Assembly (NCBI GenBank): GCA_964579295.1 | Contig: CAZOGK010000008.1 | Location: 4,974 to 68,973, forward strand | DNA: 64,000 nucleotides | DNA from: an uncultured Ardenticatenaceae bacterium | GTDB lineage: Bacteria; Chloroflexota; Anaerolineae; Promineifilales; Promineifilaceae | Direction of reading: 5' to 3' | Shown here: one piece after another, positions 11,631 to 22,252 of the stretch | Numbering within the stretch: position 1 is the first letter of the stretch | Layout of the letters: each line of letters opens with the position of its first letter | Program-made: the position numbers and the translations under genes | The notes under the pieces: generated by a model | The model's input: the letters and a program-made list of their open reading frames with translations, nothing else | Told to the model about the DNA's origin: nothing | The model's database searches: none

Positions 11631-12719
11631 TCACAGTTCGTGTTCCTCGTATTGATTGCGACACGGCGGGCCGTCGCTGATCCACATACGCCGTTGTGCG
11701 AGGTCCATGATGACCGAGGTGACGGTGCGGTATTGCTCGTCAATTGGCGCGGCCGGGTCCTCGTGGCGACAGATGGTGCGCGGCTCCGTGGTGTGGTCGC
11801 GCAGCGCCTCCTGCACATCCGCCAGCGTAACGGGCATGGCGGCGCGCAGCTGCTGCTCCAGCCGTTCGTGCCGGCCGCAGGAGTAGCGGCGAAAGTCCGG
11901 GTCCGGCGGCTCGACCACGCCCAGCGCCTCCGGATCGACAAAGTGGTTGGCGTGGACAATGCATCCCTCCTGCCACTGCAGCACATGGCTGCGCGTTGGC
12001 GCGGCTTCCACGTTGACGGCTGCGCCAGAGGCGGTGGCGATGAGGAAGTTGCCGGAACAGGCGCGTTCGCTGCTGTCCAGCACCGCCTGCGCCGCCGCCA
12101 GCGTCGTCTTTTGCAGGATCTCATAGCAGCGGACGTGAAAGGGCTTGTGCAGCCTGGCCCAGTTGTCGCCGATGGTCGATAGACCGTTAATAGCCAGACC
12201 AAGCCCGGCGTCGTTCAGCCCAATCTTGCCGCCAAAGATGCCGGCTTCGGTGAAAGCCAGCGTCGCCGGCTGGCCGGCAGCCGTCGTGTGCACCACCGCG
12301 CCCTGCACTTCGGGAATCCAGTCCCAGTTCTGCCCCAGCAGCAGGCGACCGCTGGCCGTGGCCTCCGGCGCCAGGGCGAAGGCGGTGCAGCCGTCGCCGT
12401 AAAGCTCCTGGGTGCGTACGACAAAGGCATCGTAAAGCAGCTCGTAGCGCACGTTCAGTGCTACAACCTCCAGCTCCGCGATGCCGGCGCCGGCGGCGAT
12501 GCCGCGCATACCCTCCACATAGGCAGGGTTATGCGCGGCCATCGCCTGCGCATAGAGGGCGGCGCGCCGCAGCACTTCGCCGCGCGCCACGCCGCCCTCT
12601 CGCCAGAAGCGGTCGAAGTAGACGTCACGATTGTGCAGGACACGGTCGCGCAGGGTTACCCCGTGCGCGCGGCCCTGCTCGTAGGGAGTGCCGCTGGCCC
12701 GCAGGAGAGGGAGCGTCAT
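11631..12719 (-). CDS. Peptidase C45 / acyl-CoA:6-aminopenicillanic-acid acyltransferase-like Ntn protein
   Basis: N-terminus LRASGTPYEQGRAHG and a Gly110-Cys111 site in YGDG|CTAFAL, placed like the autoprocessing nucleophile of IAT-type C45 enzymes. ATGA overlap with the upstream GNAT. Confidence 0.7.
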   Translation of the reverse strand: MTLPLLRASGTPYEQGRAHGVTLRDRVLHNRDVYFDRFWREGGVARGEVLRRAALYAQAMAAHNPAYVEGMRGIAAGAGIAELEVVALNVRYELLYDAFVVRTQELYGDGCTAFALAPEATASGRLLLGQNWDWIPEVQGAVVHTTAAGQPATLAFTEAGIFGGKIGLNDAGLGLAINGLSTIGDNWARLHKPFHVRCYEILQKTTLAAAQAVLDSSERACSGNFLIATASGAAVNVEAAPTRSHVLQWQEGCIVHANHFVDPEALGVVEPPDPDFRRYSCGRHERLEQQLRAAMPVTLADVQEALRDHTTEPRTICRHEDPAAPIDEQYRTVTSVIMDLAQRRMWISDGPPCRNQYEEHEL

Positions 12720-13771
12720 ACGCTTTCCTTTCCCTTAAGCTGGTTGCGGTACTCGACCATCGCGGGCAGCGAGCGGAAGCCAAGCTGCAGATTGAGGTCG
12801 AGCATCGGGTTGTTCTCTTCGTTGTCCGTGTCGACTTCGACCGCGCCGAAATCACGCGCATAGGTCAGTGCGCGCACCTTCATCGCCGTCGCTAGGCCGC
12901 GGCGGCGGTGGCTGCGCACCACGCCGGTCAGGCCGGTGCCCAGCTTGTCGCCGCGCGTCGAGTCGCGCCACAGACAGCTCAGTCCCACGTACTGGTCACC
13001 GTCGACGGCGATGAACCAGCCTTCGGCCAGGAAGTTGGGGCTGCTGAAGAGCTTCTTTTCCCACTCGTCAAACGGCATCTGGGTATGCCCATCCACCGAA
13101 GGTACGTCCTGTACGCAGGCCCAGTCGAGGTCGTACACCTTGCGCTTCCACTCCGGGTCGCTCTGGCTCAGGTCGGCCAGGCTCCTGACGACGATGCCGG
13201 CCTGCGCAACGCGAGCCACTTTGTCGGCAAAGGGCGCCGGGTCAAACTCTTGCGGGTTGATACGCGAGACAGGCATACGCAGGGCAGGGCTAAAGTCGCG
13301 CTTCTCCAGGAACTGCACGGCGCGCGTGCGGCTCTCGCGGGTCCAGCTGACAAGCTCTCCCGGTTCGCGCTGCGCCAGGTCGGCCATCAGGTAGCCCCAG
13401 AGAGCGCTGCCGTAGCCTTTGCGTTCCTGCTGCGGATGGACGCCGACCCAGATGAAGTATTTGTCCTCGCGAAACGACCACGACTGGTGGCCGTACTGGC
13501 CGAAGGCGACAACCTCGCCGTCGCGCTCGGCAATGAAGCGGCGCAGCAGGTGGGCGGGATTGCGACCGCTGTCCCAATGGCGCCAGTTCTCAACGGAATC
13601 GGCATGTTCCGGGTCAATGGCGTTGTCCACGCGCACTACCTCTTCGTAATCGGCGACACTGTTGAAGTCAAACGGCCGGACCGAAAGGGTCTTACCGCTG
13701 CGCAGCTTGAGGGAGGCGACGGCCTCTGCCGGTCGCTGCTGGACTGTTGTAGCTGACTGTTGTGAATACAT
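12716..13771 (-). CDS. Double-GNAT N-acetyltransferase (paralogue 2)
   Basis: Motifs VHPQQERKGYGSALWGYL, VVRSHRRRGLATAMK and NEENNPMLDLNLQLGF. About half identical by eye to 13774-14871. Confidence 0.8.
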   Translation of the reverse strand: MYSQQSATTVQQRPAEAVASLKLRSGKTLSVRPFDFNSVADYEEVVRVDNAIDPEHADSVENWRHWDSGRNPAHLLRRFIAERDGEVVAFGQYGHQSWSFREDKYFIWVGVHPQQERKGYGSALWGYLMADLAQREPGELVSWTRESRTRAVQFLEKRDFSPALRMPVSRINPQEFDPAPFADKVARVAQAGIVVRSLADLSQSDPEWKRKVYDLDWACVQDVPSVDGHTQMPFDEWEKKLFSSPNFLAEGWFIAVDGDQYVGLSCLWRDSTRGDKLGTGLTGVVRSHRRRGLATAMKVRALTYARDFGAVEVDTDNEENNPMLDLNLQLGFRSLPAMVEYRNQLKGKESV

Positions 13772-13773
13772 GG

Positions 13774-14871
13774 CTAATTCTCCTGAGCCGGTGAGTTGTC
13801 TGCTGGTAGCTGGCCGTTTGCATGTGCCAGCCTGCCGTCAAGTTGATTGGTCATGATCAGCTCGGCAGGAAGCGGCCGGAAGCCAAGCTGTAGATTAAGC
13901 TGGTACATCGGGTTGTTTTCCTCGTTGCCGGTGTCCACCGTGACGGCGCCGTAGGCGCGCGCAAACGAGAGGGCGTTGGCCTTCATGGCCGTCGCCACGC
14001 CGCGGCGGCGATGGCTGCGCTTGACGCCGGTAAAGCCGGTACCCAGGCGCCGGTCGTCGGTCAGGTCACGCCAGAGGACGCTGAGGCCCACGTACTCGTC
14101 GCCGTCCACGGCGACGAACCAGCCTTCGGGCAGCAGGTTGGGCATCCCCAACGTCTGCTGGTCGTAGACCTCGAACTCCACTTTCGTCACTTCGTCAATC
14201 GACGGGACATCCCTTTCGACTTCGGCCTCCAGCTCGTACATGCGGCGCTTCCAGTCCGGGTCGCGCTGCATCAGCTCGGCCAGGGTAACAACCCGGATTC
14301 CCGCGCGCTCGGCCGCAGCAATCTTCTCGGCAAACGGCGCCGGGTCGAACGTCTGCAAGTCGATGCGCGACATCTGTTCGCGCATGCGCAGCATGAAGCC
14401 CCGCTTCTGCAGGAAGTCGAGCGCCCGCGGGCGGTTCTCCCGCGTAAAGGTCACCAGCTCGGCCGGCTGGCGTTCGTCGAGCTGCTGCCGCAAGTAGTCC
14501 CACAAGGCGCGGCCGTAGCCCTTGCCCTGCTCGTCGGGATGGACGCCAACCCAGATATAGTAACGGTCGGGATGATAGGCCCAGTCGAGGTGGCCGTAGG
14601 AGCCATAGGCGACCATCTCATCATCCTGTTCCACGACGTAGCGACGGAAGAGATACTGAGGGTCGCGGTTCAGGTCCCAGTGCCGCCAGGAGTCGGCCGA
14701 CTCCGGGAAATCGGGGTCAATGGCGTTGTTAATCGCCACGACGCGGCTGTAGTCTGAGCTGGCGCCAAAGTCGAACGGGCGCACGCGCACGGCGGCGCCG
14801 CTGCGCAGGCTGAGTGTCTCGCCCTGAGTCGCCGCGCGGGGCAGGTCGCTACTGGTCTGTTCGCTAATCAT
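13774..14871 (-). CDS. Double-GNAT N-acetyltransferase (paralogue 3)
   Basis: Motifs VHPDEQGKGYGRALWDYL, VKRSHRRRGVATAMK and NEENNPMYQLNLQLGF. It has the same TAGCCATG junction with its upstream gene as paralogue 2. Confidence 0.8.
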   Translation of the reverse strand: MISEQTSSDLPRAATQGETLSLRSGAAVRVRPFDFGASSDYSRVVAINNAIDPDFPESADSWRHWDLNRDPQYLFRRYVVEQDDEMVAYGSYGHLDWAYHPDRYYIWVGVHPDEQGKGYGRALWDYLRQQLDERQPAELVTFTRENRPRALDFLQKRGFMLRMREQMSRIDLQTFDPAPFAEKIAAAERAGIRVVTLAELMQRDPDWKRRMYELEAEVERDVPSIDEVTKVEFEVYDQQTLGMPNLLPEGWFVAVDGDEYVGLSVLWRDLTDDRRLGTGFTGVKRSHRRRGVATAMKANALSFARAYGAVTVDTGNEENNPMYQLNLQLGFRPLPAELIMTNQLDGRLAHANGQLPADNSPAQEN

Positions 14872-14873
14872 GG

Positions 14874-15572
14874 CTACTTTTCCTCATCTTGATGTCGTTC
14901 TTCAGGTCGGGAAGGGCGGACGCCGAGGGCGGCCAGGGCCGCCGGCACGTCCAGGCCGGGCCGATAGTGCACGGCGTGCATACCAATGGCCTGGGCGGCG
15001 CCGACGTTGGCGGCGCTATCGTCGATAAAGACAGCCTCCGCGGGCTGCCGCCCGAGTCGGTCCAGGGTCAAGAGATAGATTTGTTCATCTGGTTTCATGA
15101 CTTTCTCCTCAGCCGAGACCACGATCAGGTCGAAGTCGCCGGCTATCGGGTAGGTCCGCTCGAGGCTCACACGCAGACTGTCATTGAAATTGCTGATGAT
15201 CGCCGTCTGGTATTGGGGTCGAAGCGAGCGAATATACGCTACCAATTCCTCGTCAAGGGCATCGCCGGCCCAGAAGTCGCTGCGAAAAGCGGCAAGCCGC
15301 TCTTCGTCAAGCTCTAGCTGGGCGGCCACGTCCTGCCACAAAGCGGCTTCTGTCATGCGCCCTAGCTGCGCCCGTAGGCCGGCCGTGCTGTGAAAGACGA
15401 GCCATTCTGCCTGGCCCGGCTGCAGCGCCAGCTCACGTTCCCAGCGTTGCCGGCCGCTCCAATCATGGGTACGGACCAGCACGCCGCCGACGTCGAAGAT
15501 GACCGCCCGGATGCCGGACGCAGACTCGCTGTAATTAGCGTGTGACATGATTTGCCTTGTGCCGCCTGTCAT
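14874..15572 (-). CDS. HAD-superfamily hydrolase (subfamily IA-like)
   Basis: Motif I is AVIFDVGGVLV, with Gly in place of the second Asp. Later blocks are ISNF and FIDDSAANV. GGAG lies 7 nt upstream of ATG 15572. ATG 15548 is an alternative start. Confidence 0.7.
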   Translation of the reverse strand: MTGGTRQIMSHANYSESASGIRAVIFDVGGVLVRTHDWSGRQRWERELALQPGQAEWLVFHSTAGLRAQLGRMTEAALWQDVAAQLELDEERLAAFRSDFWAGDALDEELVAYIRSLRPQYQTAIISNFNDSLRVSLERTYPIAGDFDLIVVSAEEKVMKPDEQIYLLTLDRLGRQPAEAVFIDDSAANVGAAQAIGMHAVHYRPGLDVPAALAALGVRPSRPEERHQDEEK

Positions 15573-15640
15573 TCAGGCGCTCCATCTCAACGACTGATGG
15601 CATCATGATGGTCATCTCCTGACTCACGGGGCGCCCAAAC

Positions 15641-15686
15641 AAAAAAGGACGCCGCTCCTGTCTCTCCAGGCGCCGGCGTCCTTTTT
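15641..15686. terminator. Bidirectional intrinsic terminator
   Basis: A6, GGACGCCG stem, 19-nt loop, CGGCGTCC stem, T5. A U-run follows the hairpin on both strands. Confidence 0.7.
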
Positions 15687-15724
15687 CGGGTCGGCTGGCG
15701 CGGGTCGCGCCAGCAAGATGGATC

Positions 15725-15761
15725 AAAAAGGGCCGCAGGCACCTGGTGGTGCGTGCGGCCC
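15725..15761 (-). terminator. Intrinsic terminator just after the 36-codon sORF
   Basis: Minus strand reads GGGCCGCAcGCACC acca GGTGCcTGCGGCCC, a 13-bp stem with one mismatch, followed by TTTTT. Confidence 0.7.
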
Positions 15762-15783
15762 TGACATTCACGGAATCGTTATG

Positions 15784-15894
15784 TCAACAGCGCGCAAGCG
15801 CACCACTCCCAGGCAGGGGGTAATCTCCGCCGGCACGGCTGCCGACGGCGGTGATGAAGTGACGGGTGTGGTCATTCACCTGGTACGCCTCCAT
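15784..15894 (-). CDS. Candidate 36-aa small ORF / leader peptide (MEAYQVNDHTRHFITAVGSRAGGDYPLPGSGALARC)
   Basis: GAGG, 6 nt, then ATG. About three quarters of codons end in G/C, like real genes here. It has its own promoter and terminator. It falls below the 60-aa cutoff of the ORF track. Confidence 0.35.
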   Translation of the reverse strand: MEAYQVNDHTRHFITAVGSRAGGDYPLPGSGALARC

Positions 15895-15939
15895 GCAAAA
15901 CCTCACAATACTGCTGCGCACAATCGCGCTAACCCAGAC

Positions 15940-15969
15940 ACTTTAGCATAGCCGTGGCGCGGCTGTCAA
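15940..15969 (-). promoter_or_regulatory. Near-consensus sigma-70 promoter with extended -10
   Basis: Minus strand reads TTGACA, 18 nt, TAAAGT, with TGc immediately upstream of the -10. Confidence 0.55.
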
Positions 15970-16027
15970 GAGGGCCCTGGAATTTGTGTGACTGTCTGGG
16001 ACTCACAGGGGTAGGAGGTGAAAAGTA

Positions 16028-16079
16028 GAACGTTGAAAGCGGCTTTCTTCCAGCCTCTTACTTCCAGCTTTCAACGTTC
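16028..16079 (-). terminator. 13-bp perfect inverted repeat 12 nt downstream of the stop of gene 16091-17797
   Basis: GAACGTTGAAAGC, 26-nt loop, GCTTTCAACGTTC. On the minus strand it is followed by TACTTTTC. The loop holds a direct repeat GCTGGAAG x2. Confidence 0.45.
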
Positions 16080-16090
16080 AATTCCCCAGC

Positions 16091-17797
16091 TCACTCATCC
16101 AACAAAATCACCGGCTCCTGGTAATAGCGCAGCCGGCTGCGCGCCAACTTCTGGGCCAGGAAGTCGTTGAACCAGGCGCGCTTGGCGGGGAGGGGCTCGT
16201 CGGCGCGCAGCCGGTCCAGGTCGGCGTTGAGCCGCAAGATGCGGCCGGGGATCACAAATCGTGTCAGGCCGGCCGGCAGCAAGCGCCCGTGGCTGGCCGT
16301 CTCGAATACCTGCTCTGGCGCAAACTGCGGAAAGACGGCGACAGCCGCCATCTCCGGGAACTGGCCGCGCAGGCGTTCAATCTCTGTAACCAGCGTGCGC
16401 TCCACGTCGCCCCACATCGTGTAGCGCGCCACAATCTCGTTCAATACCGCCAGCCTGTCGGCCCCGGCGCCGGCGGCGGCCAGCGTCGCCTGCCCATCTC
16501 GGTCCAGGAAGAAACAGAGACCGGCGCCCTCGTTCAGGGCGCTTTGCGCGGCGTCCACGTGCATGGGGCAGAGCGTCAGGCCGGGGACCGTTCCTAGCGC
16601 GGCCAGCAGCTCTGCGACCGGCCGGTCACTGGAGATAACGTGGTACCAGGTATGTAGCTGGAAGTCATCGCGCTGCGCGTCGACCACCTGCACGATGACG
16701 TGCGGGCAGCCGATTCGCTGCAGCGCCGTAAAGCGCGTGGCGCCGTCGAGAATGATATAGCGCTCGTTCCAGTAGGTGACGATGGGCGGGTTAATCAGCC
16801 GGCTCTCCTGTTCCAGCCGCTCGGCCAGGCGGCTGACGCGCTTCTCGTCAATCTGCTCGTGCGGCGAGACCTGCTCAGCCGGCACAACTTCCAGCGACAG
16901 CGTTTCGCTGGGCCGCTTCACGCGCAGCAGCTCGACAACCTGCCGCACCACCGCCAGCACGTCCTCGCGGCGCCGGCTGCCGATGATGCGCGTCACGTGC
17001 GGCGCCAGCAGCACGCGCGGGTGCTGCCGCACGCGCTCGCTCGCCGCGCCGGCAGTGACGCCGGCCGGAAGCTGGGACAGCGCCGCGCCGGCAATCTGCC
17101 CGCTGTCCAGCGCCCTCAGCAGCGCTTCGTCGTCCACCAGGTCGGTGTGCCCGGTGTTGACCAGGAAGGCATGGGGCTGCATCTGCGCCAATTGCGGGGC
17201 GCCAATGATGGCTTCCGTTTCGGTCGTGAAGGGCACATGCAGGCTAACAAAATCCGACCGCTGCAGCAAATCGTGGAAGTCTGCCTGGGCCACACCGGCC
17301 GCCAGCGCCAGCTCTGGCGTCAGGCGCGGCTGGTTGACCATGACCTGCATGTCGAAAGCCAGCGCGCGCCGGCCTACCTCACGGCCAATCCCGCCAAAGC
17401 CGACGATGCCCAGCGTCTTGCCCGCCAGGCCGGAGCCCGACTCGTCCTGGATAGCCAGCCGCAGCATGAAGGCCAGCGTATGCTCGGCAATTGCCACGGC
17501 GTTGCTGCCGCGGATATTGCATACTTCCACGCCCATCGTGCGCGCCGCGGTCACGTCCACGTTGTCCAGGCGCGGGCTGAGCGAGCCGATGACCCGTAGG
17601 TCCAGGCCCTCCTCGATGACGTCGTGCGTGATCGTCGCCTCCGGGCCGACAATGAGCGCGTGGTAGTCGCCAATGACCCGCTGGATTTCGGCGTCGGGCA
17701 GGCCCGGCCGCACGTCGACGGCGGCCACGGCCTGCAGCAGGCGCAGCGCCTCTTCGTCAAGCGCTTCACAGACGAGGATGCGTTGCGGCTGGGTCAT
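16091..17797 (-). CDS. Fusion protein: D-2-hydroxyacid (phosphoglycerate) dehydrogenase-like domain plus ParB/sulfiredoxin-like domain plus unknown C-terminal region
   Basis: The N-terminal half has the Rossmann motif GIVGFGGIGREVG and AEHTLAFML. The usual NxARG and LDVF..EP blocks read VNTGHTDLVD and GAALSQLP. The middle region LINPPIVTYWNERYIILDGATRFTALQRIG resembles the ParB/Srx DGxxR core. Confidence 0.6.
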   Translation of the reverse strand: MTQPQRILVCEALDEEALRLLQAVAAVDVRPGLPDAEIQRVIGDYHALIVGPEATITHDVIEEGLDLRVIGSLSPRLDNVDVTAARTMGVEVCNIRGSNAVAIAEHTLAFMLRLAIQDESGSGLAGKTLGIVGFGGIGREVGRRALAFDMQVMVNQPRLTPELALAAGVAQADFHDLLQRSDFVSLHVPFTTETEAIIGAPQLAQMQPHAFLVNTGHTDLVDDEALLRALDSGQIAGAALSQLPAGVTAGAASERVRQHPRVLLAPHVTRIIGSRRREDVLAVVRQVVELLRVKRPSETLSLEVVPAEQVSPHEQIDEKRVSRLAERLEQESRLINPPIVTYWNERYIILDGATRFTALQRIGCPHVIVQVVDAQRDDFQLHTWYHVISSDRPVAELLAALGTVPGLTLCPMHVDAAQSALNEGAGLCFFLDRDGQATLAAAGAGADRLAVLNEIVARYTMWGDVERTLVTEIERLRGQFPEMAAVAVFPQFAPEQVFETASHGRLLPAGLTRFVIPGRILRLNADLDRLRADEPLPAKRAWFNDFLAQKLARSRLRYYQEPVILLDE

Positions 17798-18765
17798 GGC
17801 GCGCCCTCCGGCTGGTTGGCAAGCTGCAGCGCCAGCGCCAACAGGTCCACATTGCCGCCGCTGATGATGACGCCGGCGCGCCGGCCCGCTTCCCGGTAGC
17901 GGCCGCCGAGCAGCGGCGCCAGGGCCACAGCGCTGCTGGGCTCGATCACAATCTTGAGACGCTGCCAGACAAAGCGCAGCGTATCCACAATCTCCGCCTC
18001 GCTCACCGTGAGCATGTCGTCAACTAGCCGGGTCATGACGGCCAGATTGCGCTCGCCAATGAAGCGGGTGCGCAGCCCATCGGCAAGCGTGGCGGGCGTC
18101 TCCTCCAGCCGGTGAATGGCCCCGGCGCGCCAGGAGATGCCGGCGTCGCCGCCCGCTTCCGGCTCGACGCCAACGACGCGGCAGCGCGGCGATTGTCCGG
18201 CCGCGGCCAGCGCGCAGCCGCTTATCAGCCCGCCGCCGCCTACCGGGACAAACAGGTAGTCCAGCTCGCCAACCTCCTCGAAAAGCTCCCACGCTGCTGT
18301 GCCCTGGCCGGCGATAATGTGGCTGTTGTCATAGGGATGGACAAGGGCCAGTCCTTCGTCGCTGGCAAGCTGCGCGGACAGCCGCTCCCGCTCGCGGGCC
18401 GGGCCGGAAACGATACGCGCACCGTAACCAGCCGTCGCCTCCCGCTTAACCGCCGGCGCGTCGTCCGGCATGACCACTGTAGCCGGCACGCCGAGGAGCC
18501 GGGCCGCCAGGGCGACCCCCTGCGCGTGGTTGCCGCTGGAATGGGTCACGACGCCAGCCGCCTGCTGAGCCGCGCTGAGCTGGCTGATGGCGTTGTAGGC
18601 GCCGCGGAACTTGAATGAGCCGGCTCGCTGGAAGTTCTCGCATTTGAGAAAGATCTGCACTCCGGCCCGCTCGTCCAGCGTGCGCGATGTGTGCACGGGC
18701 GTGCGGTGCGCCACCGGGGCAAGCCGGCCGGCGGCGGCGGCGACATCAGCGGGAGAGAGATTCAT
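17794..18765 (-). CDS. PLP-dependent serine/threonine dehydratase family protein (fold type II, no ACT domain)
   Basis: PLP-lysine motif FLKCENFQRAGSFKFRGAYNA and glycine loop VPVGGGGLISG. ATGA overlap with the downstream fusion gene. Confidence 0.85.
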   Translation of the reverse strand: MNLSPADVAAAAGRLAPVAHRTPVHTSRTLDERAGVQIFLKCENFQRAGSFKFRGAYNAISQLSAAQQAAGVVTHSSGNHAQGVALAARLLGVPATVVMPDDAPAVKREATAGYGARIVSGPARERERLSAQLASDEGLALVHPYDNSHIIAGQGTAAWELFEEVGELDYLFVPVGGGGLISGCALAAAGQSPRCRVVGVEPEAGGDAGISWRAGAIHRLEETPATLADGLRTRFIGERNLAVMTRLVDDMLTVSEAEIVDTLRFVWQRLKIVIEPSSAVALAPLLGGRYREAGRRAGVIISGGNVDLLALALQLANQPEGAP

Positions 18766-18814
18766 ACTGCTCCTCAGTCGGGGGTCGGCCTGGCAGCGCC
18801 ATGCTGTCCTGGCC

Positions 18815-19714
18815 TCAGTGGGCGCCTGGCTGCGCCTCGTCCTCCATTTCCTTCACCATCTCAATGCGCCGGAACGCCTCGAAGTAGCCGGCTTCGACAA
18901 AGCCGGCCCACTTCGGGTCGTCCACGGGGATATTCTCGGCAATGGCGTCCTGGGTCGGGTAGTAAGCGTGCAGCGTGCGCAGAATGGTCGCCGTAACGGC
19001 CGCCGGGTCGCCGCGCTGCACCTCGACGATGATGCGCGTGAGCCGCAGCAGGCTTGCTTTGTAGGTCACCCAGCCGGCGCCGCCCTCGTCGGTCTCTACC
19101 ACCAGGGCCGAAACGTCGGCGGCATTTTGCACCGACTCCGTCTGGTTGATCCAGTTGGGCGCGTCGCCGCGGCCGGCCAGGAGCTCTACCGTAGCGCGGT
19201 GGTCGAGCGTGCGCACGTCACGCACGTGCAGCTGCTGAGCGGTGTCTCCCGGCGCCATTTCCGGGAAGCGTGGCGGACGGCGGGCGACAATCAACATGCG
19301 CGTCTCGACAAAGTTGAGGCTGCGAAACAGCTCGTGCGCCGGGTTATTGCCGTCAATCACCTCCAGCCAGGTGCGCGGCGCGCCATGCCGGCAGGCCGCG
19401 TCGAGGAGAAAACCCATGATCGCCTTACCCACCCCCTGTCGCCGGCCGGAAGGCAGCACGCCTAGGCGCGTTACCCAGGCGCGGCGCGGCCGCAGACCGA
19501 GCATGCCGATGCCCAGAATCTCGTCGGCAGTCGCCGCCGCACAGGAAGAAGCGAGATCCACGTCGTAAACCTCGATATAGTCGCGCAGCCGCTGCACAGT
19601 CATCGGCATCGGGATGATGTAGTCGATGCGCGTCTCATTATAGGCATCGGCCAGTTCTTGCAGCGTGAACTCGGTTGCCGGGATCAGCTCTATGTCTGGA
19701 CTCTTACCATCCAT
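18815..19714 (-). CDS. GNAT family N-acetyltransferase
   Basis: Acetyl-CoA motif LGVLPSGRRQGVGKAIMGFLL. 299 aa with an extra C-terminal domain. Confidence 0.7.
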   Translation of the reverse strand: MDGKSPDIELIPATEFTLQELADAYNETRIDYIIPMPMTVQRLRDYIEVYDVDLASSCAAATADEILGIGMLGLRPRRAWVTRLGVLPSGRRQGVGKAIMGFLLDAACRHGAPRTWLEVIDGNNPAHELFRSLNFVETRMLIVARRPPRFPEMAPGDTAQQLHVRDVRTLDHRATVELLAGRGDAPNWINQTESVQNAADVSALVVETDEGGAGWVTYKASLLRLTRIIVEVQRGDPAAVTATILRTLHAYYPTQDAIAENIPVDDPKWAGFVEAGYFEAFRRIEMVKEMEDEAQPGAH

Positions 19715-19746
19715 GACTCAGCTTGTACAACGTCGAACTGTCTCTC

Positions 19747-20124
19747 TCACTCGCCTTCGGAAGATAGGTAACGGGAAATTTGCTTCGGGAAATTGCGCAC
19801 GCTGATCGGCTTGATGATCACGCCGTCATAGCCGTAGCGCCGGCACATATCGTGGGCAATGTCGGCAGGCCAGGCCGTAATCGCCACCAGCGGTACGCCG
19901 GCCAGCTCCGGAATCTGGCGCAGCAGGGCCACCACTGTGTGCCCGTCGATGTCGGGCAGGCCAATGTCGATGAGGATGAGGTCTGGCGTCTCGTCGATAG
20001 CCAGCTGGATACCCGACTCGCCATCGGCGGCAAAGCACATCTGGTAGCCGCTGGCGCCGAGGACCCGATCGACGAGGATGCGGCTTTCCATGCTGTCCTC
20101 GATAAGCAGTACCTTTTCAGCCAT
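19747..20124 (-). CDS. Stand-alone response-regulator receiver (CheY-like)
   Basis: GAAGGAG RBS precedes ATG 20124. Motifs are KVLLIEDS, phospho-acceptor context LILIDIGLPDIDG, and KPIS. No output domain. The track extension to 20361 is rejected. Confidence 0.85.
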   Translation of the reverse strand: MAEKVLLIEDSMESRILVDRVLGASGYQMCFAADGESGIQLAIDETPDLILIDIGLPDIDGHTVVALLRQIPELAGVPLVAITAWPADIAHDMCRRYGYDGVIIKPISVRNFPKQISRYLSSEGE

Positions 20125-20251
20125 GTCAGAGCGCTCCTTCTGGTTGCCTGACGATACCAGATAGGGCGGGTGCAGGCAAAGGAAACCGTCGCTGCGCCGG
20201 CGCGCCGGCGGTTCGGCAGCCGCCCCCGTCCGCGGTAAGATTCTGGGCGCG

Positions 20252-22252
20252 ATGTCCGCGTCACAGCACGGCCGGCAGGCCGCTTCCCCACCACGCACTC
20301 TCTGGCCCATCCTGACGGCGGGCGCCGTCGCCCTGGCGCTGCTCGGGCAGCGCCAGCTCACCGGCGAGCAGGCCGGCCGCGGGCTGCTGCTGCTTATTCC
20401 CGCGTTCCTTCTCTATCTGCACGTCAACCGGCGGTGCAACGGCCCGCTCACGCCGCCACGCCGGGACGAGCAGCCCCAGGGGCAACTGCTGGCGCCGTCC
20501 CGCCTCTGGCGGGCGCTCTTCCTGGTGGTGAGCCTCATCCTGGCGCTGCTGGCCTACCAGGGCTTTGCCGGCAACAACCTCGGCGGCGGCCTCTGGTATT
20601 GGCTGGGCAGCCTCTTCTATTTCGTGGCGGCAGTCGCCGAGCTGCCGCGGCGCCCGCGCCCCGCCGGCTCGCTGCGCTGGCCCGTCGCGCTGCTGGCTAT
20701 CACGGTCCTGGGCATCTTCTTCCGCTTCTACCAGCTGGAGGCCATCCCGGCGGAAATGACCAGCGACCATGCCGAGAAGCTGCTTGACGTTCACGACCTC
20801 CTGACCGGCGCGCGCCCCATCTTCTTCCCGCGCAATACGGGCCGCGAAGGGCTGCAGTTCTACCTGACAGCGGCCATGATCCGGCTCGGCGCGCTGCCGG
20901 AGAGTCATCTGGCGCTCAAGATCGGAACGGCCCTGTTCGGCGCGGTCACCGTGCCGCTCACCTACTTTTTGGGCCGGGAGCTGTTTGGCCGCCTGGCCGG
21001 CATCTATGCTGCGGCGCTCATCGCCATCTCGCACTGGCACGTGGCGATCAGCCGCGTGGGGCTGCGCTTTCCTTTCACGGCCGCCTTCACGGCGCCGGCC
21101 CTGGCTTTCCTCGTGCGCGCCCTGCGCGCCAACCGGCGCAATGATTGGCTGGCGGCGGGGCTCATCCTCGGCGTCGGCCTGCACAGCTATACGGCCATGC
21201 GCGTGGTTCCCGTGCTCTTTGCCCTGCTCGTGCTGCTCAAGGTCGCCGCCGACCTGCTGGCGCGGGCGCGCCGGCAGCCGCTCGCCGAAGCCAGCAGCCT
21301 CACCGTCCGCTTCTGGCACAACGCGGTGCTCGGCGCCGCGCTGTCTCTGCTTGCCTTCCTGCCGCTGCTGCGCTTTATGACCGAAGCGCCCGAACTGTTC
21401 TGGTTCCGGGCCGCCTCGCGGGCGCAGGGCGCACTGGCGCCCGGCGCCCTGTGGGCTACTTTCTGGAGCAATGTCGGCAACGCCCTGCTGATGTTTAACG
21501 TCCGCGGCGACGTGGTGCCGGCCAATACCATCCCCGGCTCGCCGCAGCTCGATCCCGTCACTGGCGCCCTCTTCTTGCTTGGCGCCGTCTACCTGCTCTG
21601 GCGCTGCCTCGCCTGCCGCGACCGGGCGGCCATTACGGTTCTCGTCAGCTTTGGCGTGCTGCTCCTGCCCAGCATCCTCAGCCTGGCCTTTCCGGAAGAG
21701 AACCCCAGCGCGGTCCGCACAGGCGGCGCCATCCCGATTGTGATGTTGATGGCTGCTCTGCCACTGGCGCAAATGACGGCCGCCGCTGCCGGCCGGCTGC
21801 GCGGCCGCGCCGGGCGTCTCTTCCTGCTGCTGCCGGCCGGCCTCGTCCTCGCCGCCATCGCGCTCAACGCCAACTGGTATTTCCAGCGCTACCGGCTGCA
21901 CGAGCTGTCCGCCTCCTGGAACGCGACGGAGATGGGCGCCGTCGTGCGCTCCTTTGTCGCGGAGGGCGGCGCGCTGGAGCACGTCTATCACATCGCCTAC
22001 CCGCACTGGGTTGACACGCGCAATATCGGGATCAACGCCGGGCGAGTTACGTGGGAGAACGCCGTGCTGGAGCTGGACGACATTGCCCTGCACGCCCTCG
22101 ACCCGGCGCCCAAGCTCTATCTGCTACACCCGCAGGACCAGGCCGCGGCGGGCCGGCTGGCCGATGTCTATCCGGCCGGCCACCTCGACCGCTATCAGTC
22201 GCCGCGGCCGGGCAAGGATTTTCTCCTTTTCAGAGTTGGGGCTGGCCCATGA
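20252..22252 (+). CDS. GT-C fold glycosyltransferase, family 39-like (ArnT/PMT type)
   Basis: 666-aa polytopic membrane protein with an early loop AEMTSDHAEKLLDVHDL. General resemblance to ArnT/PMT proteins. Confidence 0.6.
   Translation: MSASQHGRQAASPPRTLWPILTAGAVALALLGQRQLTGEQAGRGLLLLIPAFLLYLHVNRRCNGPLTPPRRDEQPQGQLLAPSRLWRALFLVVSLILALLAYQGFAGNNLGGGLWYWLGSLFYFVAAVAELPRRPRPAGSLRWPVALLAITVLGIFFRFYQLEAIPAEMTSDHAEKLLDVHDLLTGARPIFFPRNTGREGLQFYLTAAMIRLGALPESHLALKIGTALFGAVTVPLTYFLGRELFGRLAGIYAAALIAISHWHVAISRVGLRFPFTAAFTAPALAFLVRALRANRRNDWLAAGLILGVGLHSYTAMRVVPVLFALLVLLKVAADLLARARRQPLAEASSLTVRFWHNAVLGAALSLLAFLPLLRFMTEAPELFWFRAASRAQGALAPGALWATFWSNVGNALLMFNVRGDVVPANTIPGSPQLDPVTGALFLLGAVYLLWRCLACRDRAAITVLVSFGVLLLPSILSLAFPEENPSAVRTGGAIPIVMLMAALPLAQMTAAAAGRLRGRAGRLFLLLPAGLVLAAIALNANWYFQRYRLHELSASWNATEMGAVVRSFVAEGGALEHVYHIAYPHWVDTRNIGINAGRVTWENAVLELDDIALHALDPAPKLYLLHPQDQAAAGRLADVYPAGHLDRYQSPRPGKDFLLFRVGAGP

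Follow-up and report, generated by a model that had tools for sequence, protein, structure and literature searches.

The subject of this report is a four-gene operon on the minus strand (positions 16091-20124) of a 64,000-nt stretch of DNA (the window) from an uncultured Ardenticatenaceae bacterium of the Chloroflexota (contig CAZOGK010000008.1), and in particular its last gene, which encodes a 568-aa fusion protein (P0001). The first half of this protein retains the fold of SerA-type D-2-hydroxyacid dehydrogenases without their catalytic residues, the second half is predicted to fold as a complete SbnI/SerK-type free-serine kinase, and the gene preceding it encodes a pyridoxal-phosphate (PLP) enzyme of the serine-racemase type. 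On balance we think it probable that the module is an active serine kinase carried on a dead dehydrogenase scaffold which, together with the serine racemase/dehydratase, sets the fate of free serine. What is new is the three-part setting of an already known kinase fold; this setting is widespread, and it includes a pseudo-enzyme that can be traced.

The kinase half was recognized by profile and structure searches alike. The NCBIfam SbnI model matched it from profile position 7 to 253 of 254 (7e-25), and the SerK model matched it at 1.8e-10; a PDB sequence search gave SbnI at 4e-18 and SerK at 3e-8, and a nine-sequence profile of the kinase half (A4) matched the SbnI chains in the PDB at 2e-33. 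Since a Foldseek search with the full-length protein was dominated by the phosphoglycerate dehydrogenase (PGDH) half, residues 293-568 were modeled alone with AlphaFold2 (AF2), giving pLDDT 89 and pTM 0.84. The top nine PDB matches of this model were all SbnI or SerK, with template-modeling (TM) scores of 0.70-0.80 over 242-273 columns and ~23-24% identity to SbnI in the structural alignment, whereas ParB, Noc, and Srx aligned with it over only ~77 residues. The predicted layout is thus a ParB/Srx-like N-domain followed by a SerK-specific C-domain. The initial annotation of this DNA had noticed the ParB/Srx-like core, correctly, but had placed its beginning at about residue 330 rather than near residue 296-300, and had left the last ~230 aa unassigned; because the nine best structural matches span the whole region, these residues can be assigned to the kinase C-domain. 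Its suggestion that a kinase was possible, as archaeal SerK uses a ParB/Srx fold, was borne out by the profiles and TM scores, and the C-terminal region proved to be the predicted kinase and not an unrelated domain. Two other assignments were rejected. A separate new domain of 230 aa was ruled out by the NCBIfam and Foldseek matches to the SerK/SbnI C-domain, and a ParB-type CTPase or DNA clamp by the facts that only the ~77-residue N-domain is ParB/Noc-like, that there is no helix-turn-helix (HTH), and that the full-length fold is that of SbnI/SerK.

The motifs of the kinase half agree with those of its characterized relatives. Glu314, in a PHE motif, aligns with Glu30 of SerK (5x0b) and Glu20 of SbnI, and LDGATR (Asp351, Arg355) aligns with viDGvhR of SbnI and vDGhhR of SerK, Asp351 corresponding to Asp58 of SbnI. 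SerK E30 is the residue mutated (E30A/E30Q) in PDB entries 5x0e, 5x0g, 5x0j, and 5x0k; in SbnI we take Glu20 to be the catalytic Glu and Asp58 to belong to the nucleotide-binding DGxxR motif. Glu314, LDGATR, LHTWYH, and GLTRFxIPGR (here GLTRFVIPGR) were invariant in 45 of 45 triple fusions, that is, relatives in which the PLP enzyme, the dehydrogenase-like domain, and the kinase form one polypeptide, and in all architectures examined. We conclude that the kinase half, as modeled, is a complete SbnI/SerK-type free-serine-kinase fold, and we infer from this fold and the invariant catalytic motifs that its substrate would be free serine.

Motifs of the dehydrogenase-like half were placed by phmmer against plant PGDH 9jcm and by BLASTP against the SerA of the same genome, to which it is 36% identical over 307 aa. 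Foldseek matched it to PGDH structures at E 1e-26 and the two-lobe fold is kept; TIGR01327 scored the 568-aa protein at 191.6 bits against a cut-off of 454, as compared to 639.7 for the genome's true SerA. The Rossmann GxGxxG motif is intact (GFGGIG). NvARG reads NTGHT, with the catalytic Arg replaced by His217; ALDVxxxEP reads ALSQLPAGV, with the Glu and the LDV Asp gone; and TPH reads APH, in which the catalytic-triad His is kept as His267, the sole survivor of Arg-Glu-His. Both substrate-binding Arg residues are gone (VRSG reads VGPE and GRAGxG reads GSLSPR, leaving Gly51 and Ser72 in P0001), and ~16 residues of the hinge segment are deleted ahead of the Rossmann motif. The initial annotation had read an intact GFGGIG, NTGHT for NxARG, LSQLPAGV for the Glu block, and a single remaining His, and both alignment methods gave the same result: the Arg and the Glu are absent from a proper alignment as well. 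In the clade of relatives coupled to the PLP enzyme (the PALP-coupled clade) the substrate-binding Arg positions vary, and the former Glu region is variable and rich in gaps. Across that clade, too, the triad has lost its Arg and Glu, and of the three only the His persists. As judged from these alignments, the hydride-transfer site for 2-oxo acids is gone.

One further change was considered as a sign of decay and rejected. The NAD-ribose Asp (yDP) is Gln156 here, inside an invariant NQPRLTPELA motif after strand beta-2; because catalytically intact fused relatives have the same Gln, it is a trait of the subfamily and not of decay. The motif (P0001 residues 155-163, window ~17309-17335) was seen in all fused relatives, intact or degenerate. 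We take QPR after strand beta-2 to resemble the NADPH site of glyoxylate/hydroxypyruvate reductases, and by this analogy NQPRLTPELA may mark a switch to NADP(H).

Among the 45 triple fusions the dehydrogenase-like domain is the fastest evolving of the three, with a mean pairwise identity of 0.54 for the whole domain as compared to 0.70 for the PLP enzyme and 0.65 for the kinase. Within it, the Rossmann lobe (0.61) is better conserved than the former substrate lobe (0.44), which is why we propose below a nucleotide-binding or scaffold role for the pseudo-enzyme.

The PLP enzyme completes the module. In the PDB it came closest to serine racemase 1v71 of Schizosaccharomyces pombe (E 1.2e-96), with serine racemases of plants and mammals next. 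The PLP Lys, SSGNH Ser, GGGG loop, and E..D Mg2+ site are all retained, and they are invariant in the 45 triple fusions. NCBIfam PRK07048 (threo-3-hydroxyaspartate ammonia-lyase) gave 440.5 bits, narrowly missing its equivalog cut-off of 452, and the SbnA family model gave only 62.5 bits. By sequence, then, it is a serine-racemase-type enzyme, a refinement of the Ser/Thr dehydratase family to which it had first been assigned. In most relatives it forms the N-terminal domain of a ~910-aa three-domain protein, with a 20-35-residue Pro/Ala/Ser-rich linker between the PLP and dehydrogenase-like domains at the place where the window has an ATGA overlap of two genes. Within the PALP-coupled clade the PLP enzyme is missing only in one paralogous subclade.

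Distribution and ancestry of the fusion

The distribution scan used one genome per GTDB species and found relatives in 307 species genomes; the locus analyses cover the best 80 of the 307 relatives, with loci read as stop-to-stop frames plus domain matches. All 80 were from Chloroflexota metagenome-assembled genomes (MAGs), namely of Ardenticatenaceae, Promineifilaceae, Caldilineaceae, and one of Roseiflexaceae, the Promineifilaceae bearers including Ca. Promineofilum glycogenicum and Ca. Trichofilum. Fusion and neighborhood therefore recur in many genomes and are not peculiar to this one. A protein-database search gave >1,000 matches, the top 120 at least 56% identical and mostly ~910-aa proteins with an N-terminal PLP fusion. 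Among the 80 loci there were 47 triple fusions with the PLP enzyme, 11 with an adjacent PLP gene (split, as in the window), 11 cut by a contig end, and 11 without a PLP enzyme. The initial annotation had asked whether the dehydratase is always adjacent; coupling holds for 58 of the 80 loci (47 fused, 11 adjacent) but not for the 11 that have no PLP enzyme.

When the kinase half was used as query against 1.8 billion representative proteins, 1,029 relatives were recovered (E up to 0.001). The best 150 were placed in a tree, where all dehydrogenase-bearing forms fell into one clade (SH-aLRT 97) and the other clade held free-standing kinases only. In the tree of the 80 loci the intact Caldilineaceae forms were basal, followed by degenerate forms without a PLP enzyme and then by the clade of all PLP-coupled forms (100% support), inside which fusion and fission of the PLP enzyme took place four times or more; the clade to which the window belongs has eight members, all of them split (98%).

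The fused relatives show three states. In the first, the dehydrogenase is intact (R R GGG Q R D E H), as in P0133, P0144, P0145, the G210 protein, and six Caldilineaceae/Roseiflexaceae loci. In the second it is degenerate, with H, S, G, D, or N at the Arg position depending on the lineage and, in many cases, with loss of the His as well. In the third, ~390-aa forms have nothing before the kinase but ~120 residues from the start of the substrate lobe, the whole NAD lobe being gone. Because basal Caldilineaceae and Roseiflexaceae carry an intact dehydrogenase-kinase fusion, the decay of the dehydrogenase is traceable. A serC-type gene lies directly upstream of several intact fusions (L072, G210/L043, L137, L138, L146). 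From these sequence comparisons we conclude that the module descends from an intact SerA-like/SerK fusion, often beside serC.

Several observations on individual relatives may be added. The ~390-aa forms without the NAD lobe are P0149 (L075 925-2124), P0141, P0152, P0154, and P0156, and P0149 lies inside an SHMT - fusion - GcvH - GcvP operon. Some genomes have two paralogues, one a triple fusion with the PLP enzyme and one a degenerate dehydrogenase-kinase fusion without it (L104 and L128 in MAG bin30017; L081 and L130 in MAG D1.bin.20). In the PLP-less paralogue the former active-site residues differ yet are conserved (G Y .. H F E Y), and serC lies upstream of it in L128 and in the related L131.

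The genome that carries the window (3.85 Mb, 97% complete) has on another contig one cluster with a canonical serA (640 bits), a serC-type class-V aminotransferase, and a DxDxT HAD phosphatase; its canonical SerA has intact NVARG/ALDVYSQEP/TPH and a regulatory C-terminal part. The fusion as the housekeeping SerA or SerB was thereby ruled out, and because of this separate cluster we regard the fusion operon as an added module. The only CysK-family protein of the genome (C7:20299-21855) has a CBS pair and reaches the cystathionine-beta-synthase equivalog. In two other genomes (G290, G386) a free-standing SerK-like gene adjoins a CysK+CBS enzyme 53.5% identical to this one (L052 7828-9360; L048); this adjacency is a hint that the cystathionine-beta-synthase-type enzymes may use phosphoserine. 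In G362 a free-standing kinase adjoins an intact 2-hydroxyacid dehydrogenase. In genome G210 an intact SerA-like/SerK fusion immediately follows the sole serC-type gene (L043, C1 6995-10003); the genome has a separate canonical serA too, and no SerB-like HAD at E<=1e-10. It is, by gene content, a candidate for a kinase replacing phosphoserine phosphatase, or for a dedicated serine-assimilation operon.

Readings of the module

In the reading that we prefer, the kinase half would phosphorylate free L-serine to O-phosphoserine, as its fold and invariant motifs suggest, with ATP, ADP, or CTP as possible donor. The dehydrogenase half would be a pseudo-enzyme that no longer oxidizes 3-phosphoglycerate and survives as a scaffold or oligomerization domain, and probably as a nucleotide-binding regulatory domain. 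Phosphoserine might then enter sulfur-amino-acid synthesis, or return to 3-phosphoglycerate through SerC and SerA, and the PLP enzyme might racemize serine or deaminate it to pyruvate. The intact ancestral fusion would be able to catalyze both the first and the last step of the route serine to phosphoserine to phosphohydroxypyruvate to 3-phosphoglycerate. Serine also figures in other gene neighborhoods of the family, with serC beside intact fusions, SHMT and GcvH/GcvP around another relative, and a CysK+CBS enzyme beside a stand-alone kinase, and this favors the reading. By our own reasoning, a cell without the O-acetylserine route to cysteine would run short of phosphoserine through the feedback of serine on SerA if no kinase could make it again from serine. 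No CysE was found in this genome, and among Chloroflexota genomes CysE was present in 5 of the 38 that bear the kinase and in 215 of the other 363 (odds ratio 0.10, p 5e-8). Its rarity in the bearers is in line with a kinase that remakes phosphoserine where O-acetylserine is not used. The initial annotation had thought it plausible that a serine- or phosphoserine-related kinase or sensor is joined to a remnant of SerA, with a coupling to the deamination of serine, and this reading stands, refined as to the type of the PLP enzyme and the ancestry of the fusion.

Several points weigh against this reading. The scores of the kinase half are far below the equivalog cut-offs (SbnI 87.8 bits against 350, SerK 40.4 against 380), which makes it a distinct subfamily and an orthologue of neither. 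The CysE statistic ignores phylogeny. Our view that the PLP enzyme and the fusion protein act in one complex is based on a partner that is translationally coupled here and covalently fused in most relatives, and in the split form their physical association is putative. We know of no pathway that explains a serine-consuming PLP enzyme and a serine kinase in one polypeptide. A SerK-like protein from an archaeon was reported to have CTP, and not ATP, as its ligand (PMC12704722). Finally, parts of the middle domain are conserved more strongly than a passive scaffold would lead one to expect: GxGxxG, NQPRxT, His187, His217, Arg257, and His267 reach 95% conservation or more in the 45 triple fusions (37-70% identity), and in the PALP-coupled clade the replacement by His217 is found in 62 of 64 members and His267 is kept in 55 of 64. 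By sequence, the nucleotide-binding lobe and the His/His pair are still under selection in that clade, and because of this conservation the middle domain may bind a ligand or catalyze something new.

The kinase-like domain might instead run from phosphoserine to serine, either as a kinase working backward (phosphoserine + ADP to serine + ATP) or in place of a phosphatase, and so supply the last step of serine biosynthesis, a role that has been proposed for the SbnI-like DUF1015 'SerBK' family. The intact ancestral fusions directly downstream of serC agree with this, as does G210 with its single serC-like gene beside the fusion and its lack of a SerB-like HAD, and serB can be complemented by SbnI-like DUF1015 proteins whose genes adjoin serA (GapMind 2026, PMC13759103). 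In the genome studied here and its family mates, however, the serA-serC cluster has a PSP-like DxDxT HAD; moreover, the dehydrogenase half is dead, the coupling is to a serine-consuming enzyme and not to serC, the kinase half has no Pfam DUF1015 match at E<=0.1, and the reaction is thermodynamically unfavorable (noted in PMC13759103). We consider such a role unlikely for the module in the window.

The conservation of the middle domain raises two related proposals. In the broader one, a repurposed NADP(H) domain with a His217/His267 site, the racemase-type enzyme, and the kinase would be one channeled machine. It would serve either for a novel three-step conversion of serine, whose intermediate might for instance be phosphoserine or a 2-imino acid and whose product might be reduced or D-configured, or as a redox switch between phosphorylation and deamination; this too we hold to be unlikely. 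In the narrower one, which seems to us rather improbable, the middle domain would bind NADP(H) and use its new His/His site to act, in a channeled manner, on what the PLP enzyme produces, say by reducing to a D-amino acid the 2-imino acid that dehydration leaves, or on a phosphoserine-derived intermediate. Besides the near-invariant residues listed above and the Arg-to-His change kept through the PALP-coupled clade, the conservation of the Rossmann lobe close to that of the kinase (0.61 vs 0.65), the QPR sequence that we take to be like the reductase NADPH site, and the covalent fusion of three cofactor-dependent domains, which is typical of channeling, would fit such a role. But the GRAGxG carboxylate loop and both substrate-binding Arg are gone from what is the least conserved lobe (0.44), and the former Glu region is variable and gap-rich. 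Sister lineages without the PLP enzyme drift freely at the same positions and the NAD lobe can be deleted altogether; imine reduction is, to our knowledge, without precedent in this enzyme family.

It is still more doubtful that sensing or regulation is the main task of the kinase-like half, which would then be a switch that binds serine or a nucleotide and acts with the receiver on the PLP enzyme or on gene expression. SbnI combines kinase activity with the role of a heme-sensitive regulator that binds DNA (PMC7139808), proteins of the ParB fold work as nucleotide switches (PMC12704722), canonical SerA has a serine-binding ACT domain where the fusion has a serine-binding kinase fold, and a receiver gene heads the operon at ~70% of loci. 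Pure binding, however, would not need a catalytic Glu and nucleotide/substrate motifs that are invariant in all architectures; Pfam found no HTH or other DNA-binding domain; and the occurrence of the kinase fold alone beside a CysK/CBS-type enzyme and in SHMT/glycine-cleavage operons fits metabolism.

Least probable of the readings is that the trio is an analogue of SbnI-SbnA-SbnB which makes a non-proteinogenic amino acid such as 2,3-diaminopropionate from phosphoserine by PLP beta-replacement and an NAD domain, with GNATs modifying the product: the three cofactor classes (kinase, fold-type-II PLP, NAD-type) are those that lead to the staphyloferrin B precursor (PMC7139808), the nearest characterized relative of the kinase half is SbnI, and GNAT genes are frequent neighbors, but the PLP enzyme is close to serine racemases/dehydratases (E 1e-96) and not of the CysK/SbnA type (62.5 bits), the dehydrogenase domain is without catalytic residues, the immediate neighbors checked include no synthetase, siderophore, or transporter genes, and the module is found far too widely, and with too little conserved synteny (in many cases a triple fusion by itself, as in L006), for a specialized secondary pathway.

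The operon and its surroundings

Table 1. Features of the operon and of the region downstream of it, listed in the direction of transcription (window coordinates)
Feature	Position	Strand	Support
Receiver, stand-alone CheY-like, 125 aa, first operon gene	19747..20124	(-)	Pfam Response_reg 2.4e-17
GNAT acetyltransferase, 299 aa, N-terminal GNAT fold plus ~150 further residues	18815..19714	(-)	Pfam Acetyltransf_1 1.8e-12
PLP enzyme, serine-racemase / threo-3-hydroxyaspartate-dehydratase type, 323 aa	17794..18765	(-)	Pfam PALP 6e-77
Fusion protein P0001, 568 aa, last operon gene	16091-17797	(-)	Dehydrogenase-like half + kinase half
Degenerate SerA-like D-2-hydroxyacid-dehydrogenase domain, residues 1-292	16922..17797	(-)	Pfam 2-Hacid_dh + 2-Hacid_dh_C (2.7e-40)
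Predicted SbnI/SerK-type free-serine-kinase module, residues 293-568 (276 aa)	16094..16921	(-)	NCBIfam SbnI, SerK; Foldseek
Terminator-like hairpin, 13-bp perfect stem, U-rich tail	16015..16090	(-)	Fold -29.2 kcal/mol, z -3.1
HAD-IA hydrolase, 232 aa, DxGGV-type motif I	14874..15572	(-)	Pfam Hydrolase, HAD_2; TIGR02247/TIGR01509
Tandem double-GNAT genes after HAD, 365 and 351 aa	13774-14871, 12716-13771	(-)	

The coordinates and strand of the four open reading frames (ORFs) were re-derived and agreed with those first reported (Table 1). From the ORF coordinates the gap between the receiver and GNAT genes is 32 nt and that between the GNAT and PLP genes 49 nt; the PLP-gene stop and fusion-gene start overlap as ATGA (17794-17797), where the sequence reads gcgccATGAccc. 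The receiver match to Response_reg scored 63.5 bits against a Pfam gathering score of 30.2, and by eye the translation contains IEDS, LILIDIGLPD, AITAW, and IIKP, which supply the acidic pocket, the phospho-acceptor Asp, the Thr/Ser, and the Lys. PDB matches of the GNAT protein were to generic GNATs only. As judged from synteny, the receiver and the GNAT probably are regulators of the module. The hairpin directly 3' of the fusion-gene stop is likely to mark the end of the receiver-GNAT-PLP-fusion operon; a simple terminator scan made no call there, probably due to the large loop. Rfam gave no match to a riboswitch or known RNA at E<=1 over 12000-21000. A role in anti-phage defense was rejected, as there was no PADLOC match beyond weak receiver noise.

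At the 58 PLP-coupled loci a receiver gene was upstream in 40 of 56 assessable cases and a GNAT gene in 39 of 56, all 39 having the receiver too. A HAD hydrolase gene was within 5 kb downstream in 35 of 53, and the double GNAT downstream in 13 of 46; at the other extreme, L006 is a lone triple fusion with minimal synteny. We regard the HAD hydrolase as a loosely linked, often syntenic neighbor that starts a separate downstream unit and is at most a candidate member of the system.

The 518-nt gap between the fusion and HAD genes (15573-16090, minus) has features of its own. A promoter-like TTGACA-18-TAAAGT lies at 15969-15940, and ~200 nt downstream of it there is a very stable hairpin with a U-run (z -6.7; conserved part ~15724-15840), which is 75-76% conserved upstream of HAD genes in two genomes (L007 12323-12435; L005 11107-11162). 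There is also a second, bidirectional-looking terminator (z -5.7). Rfam gave no match in the hairpin region, and the element may represent a small RNA or else a leader/attenuator that serves the HAD-GNAT-GNAT unit. The two double-GNAT genes are tandem paralogues directly after the HAD gene, and the arrangement of HAD and double GNAT downstream of the fusion recurs in related genomes, at the 13 loci counted above.

Comparison with known systems

No published description of this architecture was found by full-text searches of the literature or in the 2025 survey of ParB-fold fusions. Current labels of these proteins are limited to 'NAD(P)-dependent oxidoreductase', 'phosphoglycerate dehydrogenase-like', and 'threonine dehydratase', which leaves an annotation gap. 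Free-serine kinases are otherwise known from a few hyperthermophilic archaea and one staphylococcal siderophore pathway, and here a whole bacterial branch carries the predicted kinase, including abundant activated-sludge filaments such as Ca. Promineofilum. With their intact SerA-like domain and serC neighbor, the ancestral fusions are a Rosetta stone that links the serine kinase to the phosphorylated serine pathway, and this link supports the idea of serine assimilation through phosphoserine outside the archaea. The family also offers a natural series of pseudo-enzyme states, from intact, to catalytically dead but kept, to deletion of the NAD lobe. The union of a serine racemase/dehydratase with a serine kinase is a puzzle, as no biochemical rationale for it is known; the arrangement suggests that serine and phosphoserine are handled here in a manner not studied before.

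The PLP enzyme shares with the serine racemase / L-threo-3-hydroxyaspartate dehydratase family (1v71) the PLP Lys, the racemization Ser, the tetraglycine loop, and the Mg2+ site, but unlike serine racemases it is in most relatives a domain of a ~910-aa protein. With type I SerA (ASB/ACT) the fusion shares the two-lobe fold, GxGxxG, and a serine-binding domain after the catalytic core. It differs in that the kinase replaces the ASB/ACT part, the catalytic and substrate Arg and the Glu are lost, a hinge segment is deleted, and the NAD-ribose Asp is Gln. The kinase-like DUF1015 'SerBK' proteins (PMC13759103) have an SbnI-like structure and belong to a different family, as the fusion has no DUF1015 match; they are linked to serA by operon and their partner SerA is active, whereas here the link is covalent and the SerA-like half is dead.

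The best match in both sequence and structure is SbnI of Staphylococcus aureus and S. pseudintermedius, an ATP-dependent L-serine kinase of staphyloferrin B synthesis, with the same two-domain fold (TM 0.74-0.80) and a conserved HE Glu and DG..R Asp. SbnI makes phosphoserine for a PLP enzyme (PMC7139808), and the fusion, like SbnI, is genetically tied to a fold-type-II PLP enzyme. Unlike SbnI, it is joined to a dehydrogenase-derived domain, its PLP partner is of the serine-racemase type and not SbnA, it has no siderophore context, and it showed no sign of DNA or heme binding. SerK of Thermococcus kodakarensis (TK0378), archaeal and ADP-dependent, has the same fold (TM 0.70-0.79) with Glu30 conserved; in contrast to it, the protein described here is bacterial, fused rather than free-standing, only weakly similar in sequence (E 1e-8 to 1e-10), and in the window joined to a dead dehydrogenase partner. 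Makino et al. found clear SerK homologues to be absent from bacteria (PMC5120207). In T. kodakarensis, SerK feeds cysteine synthesis and the assimilation of serine to 3-phosphoglycerate via SerC and SerA (PMC5120207). By analogy the same physiological logic may apply to the module, whose ancestral fusions beside serC carry an intact SerA-like domain.

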